From the NCBI GenBank assembly GCA_039545335.1, contig BCIN01000004.1:186001-250000 (forward strand): DNA of 64,000 nucleotides, read 5' to 3'. This DNA is from Kondoa subrosea. Lineage: Eukaryota. Below the pieces are notes generated by a model. That model was not told where the DNA came from. It did no database searches and saw only the letters and a program-made list of their open reading frames with translations. The position numbers and the translations under genes are program-made. Shown here piece after piece: positions 1,014-64,000 of this stretch; within the stretch, counting starts at the first letter, position 1, and each line of letters starts with the position of its first letter.

Positions 1014-2621
1014 TCACGCAGCTTCTACTGCCTGTTGCAACTTTTGTTCCACTCTCATTCTACTTCTTTCCTCCCTTTCCATCTTTCGCTCCCTTTCTTT
1101 CTGAGCAGTTTCGAATCTAGGTGTCCAGGGACCTTGACTTTCGTCTGACCAGAAATCCATTCTATACCTCGTATCTTTCCTGAAATCGACCGCTTTCCCT
1201 AGAGCTATATTGGCTTCGTATGGCGTTAGAAGAGGTCGAGGAAAAGCGTAGCCCCAGTCGATTGATAATCTTGGACAGGAAGTTTGTACAAAGAGAGAAA
1301 TGTGAGGTGACATGAGGGAAAGTTTGGCTGGTGAGAGTTCAGACAACAGAATGGGTATTGATCGGGAAGGTGGTAAGTTTTGCATAACGTTCTGTAGCAT
1401 TCCTTCAATAAGAAGAACCCTACTGCGAATGGAAGGACGATTACTAACCTGCAAGACCGGTAAACTTCCTTGTCGACCCAATGTACCCAAAACGACTCCC
1501 CAAGTTCCATTATCATCTTCTTTTGCTTTCAAGCTCACTTTGCCATTCTCTATAGCTTCACTTCTCATCTTTCTCATCTCTTCATGTTGATATCCCTCAC
1601 TTGTCAACTTCTTCTCGTATGGATCATAACGGAAAGCTGGCACGGTAGGGTTGGCAATCATGATGCTTTCCAAGTGGAAGCGACCATCGCCAACATAAAG
1701 GATCGCATCTGTATTCTTTGGTAAAGGAGGAGCTGTACACCCTAACACTTCACCAGGCGAAAGTGGTTTGATTTGTGGAACGATGATTTCGATCGTTCGT
1801 CGAGACGAAGAGGAAGTAGAATCTGTCGTGGAATCAGAAGAAGAAGAAGTGATGGCTAGTCTTTGTGGTGCAGCTTCCAACTGCGCGAGATTCGATCCGA
1901 GTGATTGAACGGCTGCTAAGAATTGGACCGTCCCTACACAAGCTATCCTGAATGGTTCGTTCGAGACAAGATTGGCTTCTGGTTGAGTTGCTGGTGAAGA
2001 TATACTGAGAGCAGGTAAGTCAAGGACAGCTTGATGTAGATCTTCATCTTGCAGGCATTCTGGGAAGTTGTACCGCACCGCTTGAGCAAGGTGAGAAGTA
2101 TCAATAGTGATCTCGACGAAAACATAGAGTGTGCGGATCGTCGTGCTGTCTATCGGGACTGTCCACAAACACTTCAGCTCCGCATAAAACTAGACTCGAG
2201 AAAACCTACTTAAACAAGAATGCCCGTAATGGACCAACATGTCGCAACCTAGTGCTCTCGCAGTGTAGTCGTCTACGCAGCATGCTCCATAGGTCACGTC
2301 GCCCAGCACGATTGCTTCCGCTTCAGTGAACTGTTCGACCAAATCAACCAATGCACAAGACCACATTGACAATCCTTCAGGCATTTGCAGTGCAACTCGT
2401 TGAATAGCATATTTCCTGATCTGCCAAATTGTCTTGTGCACTTCAAACGAATAATTCGAAGGCAAAAGAGCAGCAATGGCTCGATTCAAGAGGTCATCGT
2501 TCAGTACAGAAGCTGGGACCTGGTTCACTGGCACAGCGTTGCTGTTCTGGCTTCGTGTGCTACCATCAGAAGGCTTCGTTCGTCCAACAAAGCGTTTTCT
2601 CGGTTTTGCTTCTTCTGCCAT
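1014..2621 (-). CDS. DPH1: Diphthamide biosynthesis protein 1
   Basis: [73 protein letters not shown]; two introns. Confidence 0.95.
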
Positions 2622-23879: not shown

Positions 23880-26800
23880 ATGAAAGGCATTGCGGATGGC
23901 TGGACTCACGTGCAAGCGTTGCTGGAAGATACCACGGAAGCCTCGCTACCGTTTGAACTCTGGGATATACTTTCGCAGTCGCTGAATGAGAAAGAGCAAG
24001 AGCGGTTTGTCATTGCAATTGAAGCTCAAGGGACAGCTAGAAGTGTGCTATGCTGGGCGAAGAAGAGTAACAGCAAGTCACAAGTCAGCCTTTTAGGATG
24101 TTACAAACGTATAACAGAGCTCATGCATGTGTTCAGTCATTACCGGTTATTCCTCTTGAATTGGGCAAAAGGCTAGGCGCCTTTACAGAGCAAAAGCAGC
24201 TTTCTTGTCGTCTTCGCTGCACAAATCTTCTTCCGCTTCATCATCTTGTTCTTCTTCCTCAGACCGACGCTGCATACCAATTTGCCCAAACCTCCTCAGC
24301 CGAGCTGGCTAGTAGTCTTTCCGCCAATTCGCGAATCTTGCGGCAAGACAATGTGGTGACAATTGTAGAGGAGGCATCACAGAAGAAGTCTGCTCACAGC
24401 TACCAGATCGCACTGACAGAGCCAGTACTACAAGGCTTCTATGACATACAACGTACCAGCTTCACAGCTATTGCTCCTCCTACTATCATCTCAAATGGCG
24501 CAGCAGATGTGTCAAACGGAACAGAAGAGGAGCAAGACATGGAAGACTTTGTGGGAGACATCTCGGTTGACGAATCGTTTCTCGCTCAAGACTTCAATAA
24601 TAATCTCTGGCTATCGACTGAACAGCCAAAGTCGCATTCAAATGCACTACAATATCAGCCCAGCAGTCCTTCTGTGAAATTGCCTGTCAAAGACAGGTCA
24701 TGGCAAGATTGCGTATGTCTTCCTCTTAGATCACCAATAGATCCATTATTATACATGAGTACCCCTTCCGAAGCTACCTGGGACAGCAAATGTGATGTAT
24801 TTATTCGAAGCCAAGATTTGCTCAGGCTACATCTTTTCGCTGGCGACTTCGTTCTGCTCAAGTCAAAGAATGCGACAGAGTCAGAAGGACATCTCGCACG
24901 AATTTGGGCATGTGATCTGATCTTCTCACGCTACACCTTGTCCTCAAATGAAGCTAGCCTCCCATTCTTGCTCTTACCACCTCTTCTGCTACACAACCTG
25001 AATCCATCTGATTGCGCACCAAGCGAAGCATGTCAAATTATCCCGCTACGATCTTTCGACTCCAAAAGAATTCCAACGGCGAAAAGTATTACTGTGGCTC
25101 GAATCGCTTCACCTGTTTCTACCTTCAAAATATACGAACCTCTCTTCTTTCGAGCTCTCCAAAATTTCTTCGAACAGGATGGAGGCAAGAGATTGGTTCA
25201 AGAAGGTGATATGATAGCTGTTGGTATCAACGAAGGAGAAGCAAGATGGGCTGAAGAAGCTTCTTGGCAGTCAGTTTCTTCCTCTTATTCATTGCACCTA
25301 TACTGAAGCTATATATGTACATAGACTCCCAAGCACTTCTCTTCTATCGCCTACTAAGCTTGTCTATTTCCTCATCACTTCCGTTTCGCTTTCTTCTCGT
25401 CGGTCAGAATCAGCCTATGCGATCGAGAATGGAGAATTTGGTTCTTTCGCCATTGTAGGAGAAACCAAACTCGTTCAATCCGGTTTAGAGAAAAGCATCA
25501 AACCTTCCGAACCATCAAGTGGTTTATCTTCTTTCCTTGGTCTCAAATCTTTCAAGGGAGAACTGCTCTTACCTCAATTAGTCGAATATCTTGCAGCTGC
25601 TTTGTCCGAACAAGCCTCGTTACTTGATCTCACGTTATCGATTCTGGTCAAGGGAGGGAAAGGATCAGGAAAGAAGACGGCCTTGAAACTTGCTGCTGCT
25701 AGGGTTGGGATGGAGAGTATGGTGATTGACTGTTTTGATTTGTTGGGAGAATCGGAAACAAAGACCGAAGGCTTGATCAGAGCTAGAGTGGATCGTGCGA
25801 TAGAGAGTGCTCCTTGTTTGTTGGTCTTAACGAATGTGGAAGCGCTGGCTAGAAAAGCTCAAACAGTAGAGAATGGTCAAGGTGAGCTGCTCTTTTGATA
25901 GAAGGGAAGAAGGCAATTTTGATGAGATTAGCAGATCCACCAACTGTTTTGGTGCTTCAAGATTGCTTGAACCTGCTCAAAAGCAGCTGGCGAGAAACAA
26001 GATGGCCTGTCATACTTGCTGCAACTACTTCAGATGTTGATAAGCTGCCCGCAAGTGTTCTGAGCTGTTTCAAGTCTGAGTTCTCGATAGAGGTAAGCTT
26101 TCCTTTTGTGACCTTGTACTCGCGCTAAACGAATTGAATGACAGGCACCAGATGAAGCTACACGTCTGAAAATGCTCAAAAGCATAGTGGAAGAGGATGT
26201 CTTATCGCCTGATGTGTCTTTACGAAATATTGCGGTTCAGAGTGCTGCTTTATTGGCAGGCGACCTTGTTGATTTGGTCAGTCGAGCTCGTCTAGCTGCG
26301 TTCAAGAGGGCACAAGAGTACGAGTAAGCTATCACCGGCCATGTTCCTTAGTAGTGCTGACAATTTGTGAAGTGCATACAGCGATTTGCCATCATTCGAT
26401 CTACAAGCAGCGGGTCTTGCTCTGACTGGCGCTGACTTCTCGTCTGCGATGGACAAAGCTCGAGCTTCCTATTCTGAATCCATTGGAGCTCCCAAGATTC
26501 CTAATGTCACTTGGGACGATGTTGGCGGTTTGGCATCAGTCAAAGCCGATATTCTGGATACCATTCAACTTCCTCTAGAACATCCTGAACTCTTTGCTGA
26601 AGGTCTCAAGAAACGATCTGGTATTCTGCTCTACGGTCCACCAGGAACAGGCAAGACTTTGCTCGCCAAAGCAGTTGCTACTTCTTGCAGTCTCAACTTC
26701 TTTTCCGTCAAGGGTCCAGAACTGCTCAACATGTATATTGGTGAATCCGAAGCCAATGTTCGAAGAGTGTTCCAGCGAGCAAGAGATGCGAAACCTTGCT

Positions 26801-39778: not shown

Positions 39779-40897
39779 ATGACAACCCCTTCTGAGAAAG
39801 CCTTCCTCTCAAATTTTCGCCGTTCCATGCAGCGCGCCAATACGATCTGGTCCACGCCTGGAGATTATGACGCTGCCAGAGACTCTGCTGGCATGTGGGA
39901 CAAAGTATCGGAGAACAAAGGTTTATTGTCTCAGGTCGTTGTCAACCAGGAACAAGCCCTCGCTGCCTTTTTTCATACTCTGCACGCCGCCATGCAGTAT
40001 TCGAAAGTAAGTCCAGAATTGCTAAATGCTGTCTATTCATCTTTATACCTTGTTTGATAGAAACAACCCAATGACAATAACCCGATCAAAGCTGGCCTTC
40101 GAGAGCGCATCATTGAGTTTGGGCCCACACCCGTCAAAAGACTTCTTCGTACCAGTGGTCTCGATCACACATCAATCCATTTGTGGATGATTCAATGTCT
40201 TTACTCGATTCAGGACAATATCAAGGACCGTAGATCGCAAGAGAATTACATCGCCTCTACTCATTACCCATCGCACGAAAGGAATCAGACAGGTGGCAAC
40301 AGGTGGCATACGCGTCGTATTGTCATGGCGAATGTATGTTTCACAATTTCGGAATCGTACGGATCTGATGAGCAAAGCCCGCAGTGCCACATGTTCAATC
40401 TATGGATGGGAATCTTTGTTGTTACCTTGTACTTCTGCGAAGGCGATCAACATGCGCAACGTGCGATCATGGAGGTTAGTTATGTCGTGATTGTGTCCTC
40501 AACACAGTGTTGACCTCGACTCTAGAAATCATTCAAGCTTATACACAACGAATTGCAACCAGTTCTTGTCTCGACTTACGAGTGTTGCAATACGACCGAC
40601 AGTGTCGCCTTTTGCAATGACGCCTCGCGTTACCTTCATGAGATTAATGATGCTGTAGAGTGGCTGCGCAGAGCCGAGTTCAACGCAAGCCGCCAACTTA
40701 AAGACGAAGGCCCCGCACCTGTCAGTCTCAACATACTCTACAATAATTATCGAAATGGTGATTCACAATTCAAGGTTTCGGCGGCCGTCGATCAATTCTT
40801 ATGGTGGGAAGAGAACGATACCTTGACACGGCGGCAGCAACAGGAAGAGTGGATGCGTCAATGGTATGGACCTGTTATTCAAAGGCCCCATGCTTAG
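39779..40897 (+). CDS. Orphan, probably helical, protein (~340 aa)
   Basis: Three exons join in frame via GT-AG introns (MTTPSEKAFL...YSK|KQPND...AIME|KSFKL...QRPHA*). Confidence 0.65.
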
Positions 40898-59138: not shown

Positions 59139-61094
59139 CTACGTTTTCTGTAACAATCTAAAGTTGCCTTGAATAGCAAACTTTGCTGGTAAGAGCAAGA
59201 AAGCAGCGATAATGTAGCCTGTCACTCGATATAAGATCGTCAGACGAATCTGCACAAAGGATTTGACAGACATGATCCAGCAAAAAGAATTGACGGAATA
59301 TAGATATTGATTCTGTACAGCCCGCTCAATAGGATGGCTCAGTGCTGATCGAGCACAAACCCTTCCCGCCCGATTGCTTGACCGCTTTATACTGACTAAG
59401 CAACAATCAAGTACTGATACGAAAAGCATAACGTACTATTCGGAAAGCGCAGATGCTATGGGTGCTCCAAATAGACAAGGCAAGACTATAGAGAGCCATA
59501 GGAGAGACATTCTGCGATACCGAAACGAAATTAGTCACGAGATGCATGCTGCGTTCGAAAAGCTTTTACGCAGATCTCAGGTTTGCAACGCCGACACATT
59601 CTGATGTACATGGAGTATTCTGCTGACTTTTTTAGCAGCCTTAAGATGTTGAAAAGCACATCTCACGCTGGACCAGAAAATTCCACCAATCGCACCTGAA
59701 GAGAATGACCAAAAAAGCTTAAATTGTGTCTCCACTAGCTTACCGTTGATCAGAGCAAAAACAATCATAGCAGGGAACGATCTAGCAGTGGTCCTGTGTT
59801 TCATTGTCATCAAACGTCAAGCTACTATATTAGTTCACGGCTCAAAGCTTACCAAAGTGTTAGTATCTGCAAACCGCTTGCCAGCGTCAAGAGCATAGCG
59901 CAATTGATCCTTCCAAATCTATCCAGTATCACTCCCGTGACAGGTCGACCAATCATTTGACCTGCGCTGAATACTGCTTGCAAGATTGCTCCTTGTGATT
60001 GACTGAGACTTAGAGCTTGTACAGCGAATGTTGGAATAGTGACTGTGCATAAAGTTCAAGCGATACAGTCGTAAAAGGGGTCATTGCTTACAAAGACAGA
60101 TCGTATATCCACACATTGAGAAGGTCGACCATAGAATGACGAAAGCAAAAGATCGATGCACAAGCAAAGACAGCTGTAATGGCTGACACTTCGCATCTAG
60201 GATTTCGTTACGTGCTGTATCTTCATCAGATCAGAGTCGGTCGATAGGAAGACTGAGTGAGCTTACCTTTGAGGAAAATTGCAGCGGGCATAAGGATGAC
60301 CAGTGAGATAAGGCTATTGGCTATGAACGCCCATCTCTATCTATTCGTCAGCTCAGGCCTTCTTATAAAGCAGAAAGAAATCAACCAATCCATGTCGCCC
60401 ACTAATCAATCTCGTCGTAATCGAGAAAACCAATCCACCAAAGCCCGCTCCACTAGCAGCAATACCAGCTGCCAAAGCTCTTCTTTTATCAAACCATTGT
60501 TGTGTTAAAGGTGCAGTAGAAACCATTATCAATCCTAATCCCATACCGAGACAAACGCCTTGAGTTAAAAGCAATTGCCAAATCTTGTTTGTGAACGCAG
60601 CAAGAAGTTGTCCACCGCTGAAAAGAAGAATACCTAGAATCATAGGTGCTTTGAAAGTATATTTATGGGATAGGTAGTTTGAAAGTGGTGCGAAGAGGAA
60701 AGCAGAGGCTAGACTTAAGCCGCCGACCTGAAGAGATGCTCAGCTTCACATATGAATGAATGAGATGAAGAGAGTACTGACGAAACTGTATTGCAGACTG
60801 GTTGCACCTGGATAGTGACCCCGAGCAACAAAGTACGACAGAAAGACGCCAAAAGTGCTATTGATACCCGAAGTAGCTGATATTACCTTGATCAGCTATA
60901 GTTGATGCGATAATGTATGGTAATTGCTCACCCGCACTGGTCCAAAATAACCAGAAAACGACTTTCCAGGCTTGAAGATTGGGTTTATGATCGCTGGTTG
61001 CTGACTTAGAAGTTTCTAAATTGTTCTCGACATCAACGCCGGTCGCAGCTTCAGGCTTGATATTTTCGGAGTCGAGACTGCTGTTTCGAGACAT
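59139..61094 (-). CDS. MFS monocarboxylate-type transporter
   Basis: TFGVFLSYF, IWQLLLTQGVCLGMGLGL, QWFDKRRALAAGIAASGAGFGG, GQMIGRP, DRFGRIN; multiple TM segments. Confidence 0.9.
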
Positions 61095-61860
61095 ATGTTC
61101 AGAATTAGAATGCTTTGAAAGGAGCCTGAAAAAGATATGTAGACAATATTCTTGAGAGATAAGCACTGAAGGACAGCGAGAAATGCAAGCCATTATGGAT
61201 GATGTAACAACTGAAGCACGGAAAAGCGGCCAAGGTTGAAGTGAATGGTCCTGCTCGCATTGAGCGGCTTTAGCGGATCATACATAACAAATGAATGCGC
61301 GAGAGCTAGACGGTCCGAAGAACGAAATTGTGATTGCTTAAGTGAATTGGCATTGCTGCTAAGTCTTAGTCGAACGCACACCCAAGATAGCTCCGCTGCA
61401 AGCCTCACGAAGGAGACCAACCATCTTGCAGGCATATCAAGGCTGAAGTCCGGCACCGGGAGAGAGGAAGAGAGCTCTTCCCCAGAGTACATAAAGAGTC
61501 AGACACGAAACGTAGCTGCAGCATTCTCGTGACTTCGGAAGTCTCGGTAGCGCAGGCGATATTCATGACGAGTCGCGCATACACACGCAAAGGAAAGACC
61601 CAAAGAAAGATTCGCTCAAGATTTGCGTTAGACGTCAAATGTACACAAGACCACAGTACAGCAGAGATCCCCATGGTTGCTCTGAGCGTTGAGATGAAGG
61701 AGCATTCGCAATGATGCAGGCCACGATAAGGGAAGGACGACATTTCCGACGGATCTCATTGGCAGTTTCGGACAAACGTCGACTTGAATCTCATCAGTTA
61801 GATTGTAAGTGGCTTACTCATAGCCTCGCAAACATCCTAACGTCCTATGCTCAGCACAAC

Positions 61861-62670
61861 ATGTTGCCTATCGCTTCAACGTCAAGACTTCCCTTGATGC
61901 AAAATCCCATTTCTCGCAAGGCAACAACTCTAGCTACTTTACCACCTCAGGCCAAGAAGCTACCCTATCGTGGTCGATTATCCAAGCCAGGTCGAGTCTA
62001 CACTAAATCCAAGCGAGATCTCTTCGCTAAGTATACTACTCTGCTGAATGGATCACCTCTGGTTCTATTCTTTCGACCTAAACACCTTACAGCAGGTCAA
62101 TTCAATTTATTCCGAGCAGAAGTGAAGAACCTTAGCCCGGATGAAGAGAATCCTTTATTGTCAATAACTCATTTACGAACAAATCTCTTACCTCCCCTCT
62201 TACGCACTTTAACTTTACCAGCTTCTTTACTAAAACCAGAACTCAAAGGCGATTTAGCTGTACTCACTTTAAACGCACCTGAATTAGATCCACCTTTGCT
62301 TAAAGCTTTCCTTAAAGTATTCGACAAACATACTAAACTTTTACGCAACGCTCAATTGGAGAAACGCAAGTATTTACCAAAATCAGATCAATCATCATCT
62401 GGTGTTGCTCAACCTGAAAATCAATTGGAAATCTTGACTGCTATTTTAGAAAAAAGAAAAGAATTGTCTGCCAAGCAAGTTAGGGAGTTTGCTGATTTAC
62501 CTGGATTGCAAGAGTTGAGAGGACAGATTGTTGGTTTGATTGAAACGCAAGCGAGGGAATTGGTTGGTGTGCTTGATAGAGCTAAAGGGAGTGAATTGGC
62601 AATGGTTTTGGGTGAGAGAGTGAAGCAGTTGGAGTCGAAGAAGGGAGAGGAAGATGTGGTGAAGGCTTAG
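61861..62670 (+). CDS. MRPL11: Mitochondrial ribosomal protein uL10m
   Basis: Presequence; LVLFF...LTAGQFNLFRAEV; LKGDLAVL; FADLPGLQELRGQIVGLI. Confidence 0.75.
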   Translation: MLPIASTSRLPLMQNPISRKATTLATLPPQAKKLPYRGRLSKPGRVYTKSKRDLFAKYTTLLNGSPLVLFFRPKHLTAGQFNLFRAEVKNLSPDEENPLLSITHLRTNLLPPLLRTLTLPASLLKPELKGDLAVLTLNAPELDPPLLKAFLKVFDKHTKLLRNAQLEKRKYLPKSDQSSSGVAQPENQLEILTAILEKRKELSAKQVREFADLPGLQELRGQIVGLIETQARELVGVLDRAKGSELAMVLGERVKQLESKKGEEDVVKA

Positions 62671-63096: not shown

Positions 63097-64000
63097 ATGT
63101 CGAGCACTACTTGGGTGCGTTTCATCATCGCATCATCGCGTTATACAGAATTCCAATCTCATCCTTTATGCGAACAGGAATTAGGGACAGCTAAGGTTAA
63201 TTCACCCACTATTGTGTCGAAAGGAGCTCTGTTGACGTATTGCAAGAGTAGATTCTGTCGCGAAAAGCATTGGACAGCTCGGAAGCGAAATGGTGAGCTC
63301 ATTCCATGTCATCTGATTCTTGCTTGTCTGAGTAATTCAATAGGTGAGATTCACGCGATGCAGTACCAGTGTGACATTGATGCTGAAGACAATGAAATCA
63401 CAGGGTTTCAATGGAAGCGCTCAATGTAAGTCTTCGCTCATGCAAACCTTTTCGCTCGATTAACAGTATATTCAGTGGGTAGATGAAGAAGGTCGACACG
63501 TAGGTACCTTCACTGTAACTCATTCTTCCTTCATTGGTTTCATGAAATAGCGAGTTTGGGAATCGACTTCCCGTAAGACGAGGAAAGGTTCAGGCATAGA
63601 TGGTTTGTTCCTTGTCTGCTTGTTGCTAGATTAGCTCAAGCAGATAGAATATAAACAGCCGTAGCGGTTCGTCGAGCTATTGCAGACTCAGATTCGGTTC
63701 TGATCTGTTGGTTCCATGTGAACAGATCTTCGCCTTGATCAAAGCGCCTAAAAAACCTTTGTCCACTGTATTGGTTATGCAATACAGGTACATCTCTAAA
63801 CCTGTCACGACTGCCGTGCTAAGCAAGGGAATATAGACCACCTGTGGACCGAATTTGCGTGGAAATGCCTGCTGGTTTAATTGACGAGGGTAAGCAGACT
63901 CATTTGTCGTGAGGACATCACTTAACAGGCCAAAAAAGGCGAATCGCCCGAAGAAGCAGCAGGTCAGCAGGTGTCGATCCGTCAGCCTACGATTTATGTT
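63097..64000 (+). CDS. YSA1: ADP-ribose pyrophosphatase (Nudix, NUDT5-like); runs off window end
   Basis: Spliced AKWVSMEALNWVDEEGRH|RVWESTSRKT...GIDAVAIFA...[32 protein letters not shown] (start of Nudix box). Confidence 0.9.
63293..63403 (+). other. Two abutting introns (51 + 60 nt) with zero-length exon
   Basis: TG|gtgagc...caatag|gtgaga...cacag|G. Confidence 0.65.

Follow-up and report, generated by a model that had tools for sequence, protein, structure and literature searches.

A 111-nt interruption of a tryptophan codon in a NUDT5/YSA1-like Nudix gene divides into two abutting intron-like units and is a candidate for recursive splicing

We find that a 111-nt gap in the coding sequence of a NUDT5/YSA1-like Nudix gene (63293-63403, + strand) divides at an internal AG|GT into two intron-like units of 51 and 60 nt that directly abut each other. 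The gap splits a Trp codon TG|G in phase 2. All positions refer to the window, the whole 64,000-nt stretch of DNA that was analysed. We lean slightly towards the explanation that the gap consists of two introns of modal size that are spliced stepwise, the upstream unit first, and we hold this to be a little better than an even bet. Reading the sequence directly, we see the upstream exon end in ..GCG AAA TG at 63292 and run into the donor GTGAGC from 63293. The CAATAG that ends at 63343 directly adjoins the GTGAGA that starts at 63344. Finally, CACAG ends at 63403 and the exon restarts with G GTT TCA at 63404. A 3′ splice site is thus placed immediately beside a 5′ splice site (CAATAG|GTGAGA) within a single mRNA-level intron, the arrangement called a zero-nucleotide exon. 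The features of this region are as follows.

63252..63292, + strand: exon whose last two letters are the TG of the Trp codon (motif ..SEAKW); an in-frame TAG closes the frame upstream of 63252, and the 5′ boundary is uncertain
63293..63343, + strand: unit 1 (51 nt), donor GTGAGC, acceptor CAATAG
63312..63318, + strand: branch-site candidate TCTGATT of unit 1, with its A at 63316, 27 nt upstream of the 3′ end of unit 1
63327..63333, + strand: second branch-site candidate TCTGAGT of unit 1 (3.2 bits), with its A at 63331, 12 nt upstream of the TAG at the 3′ end of unit 1
63343..63344, + strand: AG|GT junction read from the sequence, the zero-nucleotide exon and candidate ratchet point
63344..63403, + strand: unit 2 (60 nt), donor GTGAGA, acceptor CACAG
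63376..63388, + strand: overlapping branch-site candidates ATTGATG (A at 63380) and GCTGAAG (A at 63386), serving unit 2 and the whole intron alike, 23 and 17 nt before 63403

The original prediction had described a split Trp codon, two complete intron-like units joined at AG|GTGAGA, ctgat and ctgag motifs in unit 1, and a TGG TGA whenever either unit is retained. Re-reading the letters, we recovered all of these, with the two motifs placing their branch adenines at 63316 and 63331. In the spliced model, keeping unit 1, unit 2 or both puts a TGA right behind the Trp codon.

To judge the size of the gap, a norm for the local introns is needed. Scanning both strands of the window, we collected GT..AG stretches of 38-199 nt without which the frame would close and whose two flanks are stop-free and coding-like. 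This gave 4,512 candidates. The 48-67 nt bins contain 444 of these. When the candidates were ranked by a generic signal score, 16 of the top 42 fell in the 48-67 nt bins and 0-5 in each of the longer bins. We then curated 30 introns, of which 24 came from the candidate screen (strand agreement with coding ORFs and a plausible branch motif) and 6 were modelled manually from the Nudix gene; units 1 and 2 were excluded from the 30 introns used for the splice-signal matrices. In this small set, which like its matrices was put together in silico and may contain some wrong members, the introns measure 46-69 nt with a median of 54.5 nt. The 111-nt gap is therefore about twice the local intron size, as had been claimed. 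The curated consensus is GTGAGT or GTAAGT for the donor and GCTGAY for the branch. The distance from branch to 3′ end has a median of 17 nt (range 11-40) and is at least 24 nt in 9/30 introns.

Scoring the two units with these matrices, we obtained 9.4 bits for the donor, 5.7 for the branch and 5.8 for the acceptor of unit 1, a total of 21.0 bits, as high as or higher than in 63% of our 30 introns. None of these three signals falls below the median of the curated set. Unit 1 combines a strong donor with a branch and a TAG acceptor of median quality at a modal length. Unit 2 scored lower (donor 6.0, branch 5.6, acceptor 2.1, total 13.7 bits) and lies at the 3rd percentile of the curated introns. 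Its weak part is the outer acceptor of 2.1 bits, which is needed in every scenario. The branch candidates of unit 2 score 5.6 bits (A 63380) and 5.4 bits (A 63386), and the internal donor of 6.0 bits is within the curated range, where 5/30 donors score 5.7 or less. By these in silico scores, the branch and acceptor of unit 1 and the donor of unit 2 appear to reach the quality of the organism's real introns. When unit 1 is excised first, the donor regenerated as ATG|GTGAGA scores 6.6 bits, compared with 6.0 in place, and the first ligation is predicted to restore a functional 5′ splice site. When unit 2 is excised first, the acceptor of unit 1 scores 5.1 bits.

Unit 1 has a choice of branch sites. 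The second candidate, TCTGAGT, has a counterpart in the curated intron 60728-60781 (- strand), where GCTGAGC stands 12 nt from the 3′ end, the same type of motif at the same distance. If the first candidate at 63316 is used, the GAG at 63330-63332 sits between this branch and the TAG and could compete with it. An AG at least 8 nt past the predicted branch and before the acceptor is also present in 7/30 curated introns.

From these signals a stepwise route can be drawn. The introns of the host appear to be recognised across the intron, with a narrow length optimum of about 50-60 nt. Given such a narrow optimum, the strong donor at 63293 would find its partners in the TAG at 63343 and in the closest usable branch, at 63316 or 63331. 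In the first step, unit 1 would be excised and the ligation would create the new donor ATG|GTGAGA. In the second step, unit 2 would be excised by way of this donor, a branch at 63380 or 63386, and the CAG that ends at 63403, and the end product would be an in-frame ..AKW|VSMEALN.. mRNA. The reverse order, with unit 2 removed first, would be workable too, and a one-step reaction from 63293 to 63403 may run alongside. Transcripts that lose one unit only would meet the TGA directly behind Trp and be unproductive. We infer both the actual use of the internal sites and their order. In view of splice-site choice in short-intron fungi, we prefer stepwise, upstream-first removal over removal in one step.

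The gap may instead be a single plain intron of 111 nt that is removed in one step from 63293 to 63403, with the internal AG|GT being a chance occurrence or an unused relic. We regard this as the strongest competing explanation, yet a less likely one than stepwise removal. One-step removal is fully possible because the outer donor, at 9.4 bits the strongest signal of all, exceeds the internal donor (6.0 bits) and because the outer sites alone suffice for the mRNA. The branch candidates 63380 and 63386 suit the outer acceptor equally well, and above 78 nt, too, the window has some well-scoring candidate introns that may be real. However, the outer donor would then have to skip a median-quality branch and a TAG at modal distance in favour of a 2.1-bit acceptor at twice the distance. 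We also considered an RNA structure that masks the internal site or draws the outer ends close to each other, which would have helped the single intron. This was rejected, since the fold over the region is not significant (z = -0.59; 54 of 200 shuffled sequences gave an equally good or better fold).

How often chance alone produces such an internal site was checked by simulation. We generated 100,000 random introns of 111 nt in which the real outer donor and the 30 nt at the 3′ end were left unchanged, while a first-order model of intron interiors supplied the 73 nt in between. An AG|GT that yields two units of 44-70 nt was present in 4,062 of the 100,000, and this frequency agrees with a plain intron that carries the motif by chance. 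In comparison, a combined internal acceptor, branch and donor score as high as the observed one, or higher, was reached in only 57/100,000 random introns, which argues against the plain intron. All three internal scores were separately matched or beaten in 6/100,000.

The original prediction had proposed to look for an enrichment of internal AG|GT sites, and within the 64-kb window we saw none. Scanning both strands with a permissive threshold set by unit 2, we found 2 double units, against a mean of 1.1 in 20 resampled control windows, and this count too is what the single-intron explanation expects. The second double unit (40653-40766, - strand, 48 + 66 nt) was discarded as likely chance; it runs antisense to a 123-aa ORF (40526-40897, + strand) and falls within the background expectation. 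The unusual feature of the Nudix gap is that the double unit is placed exactly where an intron is required, and not the frequency of the motif.

A regulatory use of the stepwise route is also conceivable, in which partial splicing yields TGA-bearing transcripts that are degraded, tuning the expression of the Nudix gene in the manner of regulated intron retention. Both single-unit products do stop directly behind Trp, and stress-regulated intron retention is mentioned for C. neoformans in one preprint (10.1101/224170). But sequence cannot tell regulation from simple stepwise removal, and such regulation would be a refinement of the stepwise reading and not an exclusive alternative to it. We consider it improbable.

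The need to remove the entire gap follows from the gene model. The Nudix gene is heavily interrupted, with at least 8 introns in about 850 nt of the + strand, from about 63097 to the end of the window. Downstream of the gap, we modelled the following exons.

63404..63425, + strand: 22-nt exon (the G of the Trp codon, then VSMEALN)
63476-63499, + strand: 24-nt exon
63551-63602, + strand: 52-nt exon
63659-63666, + strand: 8-nt micro-exon CCGTAGCG, between 56- and 59-nt introns
63726-63787, + strand: 62-nt exon
63837-63889, + strand: 53-nt exon, matching human NUDT5 chains
63939-63962, + strand: 24-nt exon with a provisional 3′ boundary; the gene continues past the end of the window

The introns between these exons, from 63404 to 63962, measure 50, 51, 56, 59, 49 and 49 nt in order, and the seven successive exons keep the frame in the spliced model. 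The 8-nt micro-exon CCGTAGCG, which has exons of 22, 24 and 52 nt nearby, is required both for the frame and for a NUDT5-like spacing.

Performing a PDB search, we found that a 29-aa ORF piece with the exon 63837-63889 matches nine distinct chain sequences of human ADP-sugar pyrophosphatase (NUDT5), with E values from 9.5e-5 to 1.3e-4, over the strand that runs into the Nudix box. The human chain 5qj4_A carries ..GKWV at 27-30 and ..FRPP at 84-87, so that W29 and R85 are 56 residues apart. In our spliced model (exons 63252-63292, 63404-63425, 63476-63499, 63551-63602, 63659-63666, 63726-63787 and 63837-63889), the distance from the Trp of ..AKW to the Arg of RPP is also 56 residues. The K-W-V motif therefore stands at the spacing from RPP that is found in ADP-ribose (ADP-sugar) pyrophosphatases of the NUDT5/YSA1 type. 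Since this spacing is the same in the model and in NUDT5, no residues fit between W and V. Together with the TGG TGA that results from retaining either unit, this means that the whole 111 nt must be absent from the mRNA and that 63292 must be joined to 63404. On the basis of the NUDT5 chain matches and the Trp-to-RPP spacing, we take the gene to be NUDT5/YSA1-like, probably encoding an ADP-ribose pyrophosphatase.

Other searches with parts of this gene gave no matches. Pfam returned 0 families for four short exon-containing ORF pieces, the window stopping just past the start of the Nudix box; the PDB search gave 0 matches for two other exon-containing pieces; and a 62-aa stop-free ORF around the longest exon (21 aa) found no homologue among longer proteins. 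These empty Pfam and PDB results, and the three competing models of the 5′ end described below, would suit a wrong gene model or a decaying gene, in which 63293-63403 would hold a short true exon, a different frame or a pseudogene, but the distance from Trp to RPP is identical to that in human NUDT5, seven successive downstream exons stay in frame and any internal sequence used as an exon gives a TGA at once, making this explanation very improbable.

The neighbouring single-exon gene, a DPH1-like ORF, gave some information about the host. Its best match is 58% identical, its best named relatives are Microbotryomycetes (48-50%), and the best protein from the JGI source has 48% identity, so that close relatives are unlikely in that source. 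The host is thus a basidiomycete, probably of the Pucciniomycotina, without a close relative in the protein collection searched.

We next consider how two abutting introns might have come about. The original prediction had offered two possible origins, the shrinkage of a micro-exon and the duplication of an intron. A recent tandem duplication or an origin from an introner-like repeat was rejected, because the resemblance between the two units does not go beyond that of shuffled sequences (local similarity score 7.0, against a shuffle mean of 6.5; 42.5% of 1,000 shuffles scored as high or higher) and because the window holds no copies of unit 1 or unit 2 elsewhere. The loss of a micro-exon between two old introns, on the other hand, fits the 8-, 22- and 24-nt exons of the same gene. 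These short exons are tolerated between introns of 49-59 nt, so exon length does not limit the splicing of the Nudix gene.

Going further, we tentatively suggest that the spliceosome of this intron-defining fungus might measure intron length so tightly that a 111-nt span containing a modal-size unit would obligatorily be treated as two introns, that the zero-length exon might be the fossil of a shrunken micro-exon, and that a genome-wide class of 'double-modal' introns might exist in such fungi; we would call this doubtful at present. If it is true, recursive splicing here would be no aid to the removal of long introns but the residue of an exon lost between two minimal introns.

We now turn to the cases known from other organisms. 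The original prediction had set the gap beside the AG|GT ratchet sites of very long animal introns and the nested stwintrons of filamentous ascomycetes. That account was incomplete, since zero-nucleotide exons have already been reported in fungi (10.1101/224170, 10.1101/226894).

In C. neoformans, spliceosome profiling revealed a 375-nt intron of BOT1/CNAG_07884 that is split into 210 + 165 nt at a zero-nucleotide exon, with junctions, branches for both steps and 3′-end peaks (bioRxiv 10.1101/224170). As in our case, the host is a basidiomycete with short introns and the gene codes for a protein. The two parts of the BOT1 intron, however, are far above the modal size and are backed by RNA, while the Nudix units of 51 and 60 nt are of modal size and are predicted from the sequence. 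The study reports this one recursive case in C. neoformans (10.1101/224170), and on that count recursive splicing at zero-nucleotide exons may be rare.

In S. pombe, a zero-length exon lies in a 336-nt intron of SPNCRNA.445, a snoRNA host, as one of two such instances found (bioRxiv 10.1101/226894). Spliceosome profiling and RT-PCR confirmed it, and other Schizosaccharomyces species conserve it as well (10.1101/226894). Here too, a 3′ splice site stands immediately beside a 5′ splice site within an intron of a short-intron yeast. In contrast to the Nudix gap, which has 111 nt and lies in a coding gene, the S. pombe case concerns a long intron in a host transcript that does not code for protein.

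Ratchet points, or zero-nucleotide exons, are also described in long introns of Drosophila and vertebrates (Burnette 2005, Duff 2015, Sibley 2015; bioRxiv 10.1101/006163). They share with the Nudix gap an AG|GT at which the first ligation restores a 5′ splice site, in our case by prediction. Unlike the Nudix gap, they divide up introns that span tens of kilobases, and their presumed role is to help in removing very long introns. A total of only 111 nt cannot be accounted for by a need to break up a long intron.

Among the complex intervening sequences of fungi, abutting U2 introns that are excised by recursive splicing are treated as a class of their own, and the loss of an exon in evolution is described as fusing neighbouring introns into a 'dual intervening sequence' (PMC6616335). 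A complex intervening sequence of Lipomyces starkeyi is removed in one reaction or in two (PMC7138796). The Nudix gap resembles these in that it appears to hold more than one U2 intron and in that the one-step and the two-step route give the same mRNA. In a stwintron, the external intron has its donor, branch or acceptor element broken up by an internal intron (PMC6616335), and for that reason the order of excision is obligatory, with the internal intron leaving first. We considered this arrangement and rejected it, as the outer donor at 63293, the outer branches at 63380/63386 and the outer acceptor at 63403 are all uninterrupted. With no splice element interrupted, and with both units and the outer pair of sites intact, the Nudix gap is not a stwintron. 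Its sequence layout makes it a candidate for the abutting-intron class.

The principle of the zero-nucleotide exon is already known in fungi from the C. neoformans and S. pombe cases; only the minimal size of both units and the position inside a codon are new here. In the open-access literature searched, we found no description of such a minimal case (111 nt, modal-size units, inside a codon). If the two-step route were confirmed, the Nudix gap would be the smallest recursive-splicing substrate described in that literature, with both halves at minimal intron size and within a codon. Recursive splicing would then be detached from the purpose usually given for it, the breaking-up of very long introns, and would be tied to exon loss and to the measurement of intron length in species that define their introns. 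Gene finders trained on a narrow distribution of intron lengths may mis-model double-unit sites.

Several minor observations concern the rest of the Nudix gene and its surroundings. At the 5′ end (63097-63292, + strand), three routes lead from the ATG at 63097 into the frame of the Trp codon. The first uses a single 137-nt intron (63115-63251), the second uses introns of 63 and 56 nt that flank an 18-nt exon (63178-63195), and the third uses a 41-nt intron (63237-63277) with a poor score. The first two models differ by skipping or inclusion of the 18-nt exon. In the same region, two adjacent segments, one starting at 63211 and the other at 63252, resemble each other in the peptides they encode and may go back to an old duplication. 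In the intron 63426-63475 (+ strand), an in-frame alternative acceptor AACAG at 63466, 9 nt upstream, would add three residues. This acceptor is probably unused because it lies only 2 nt past the best branch motif. Lastly, intron density is very uneven among adjacent genes. The Nudix gene stands near many long uninterrupted ORFs, and those of the window include 61693-62670 (+ strand, 325 aa), 24071-25306 (+ strand, 411 aa) and 1014-2189 (- strand, 391 aa).
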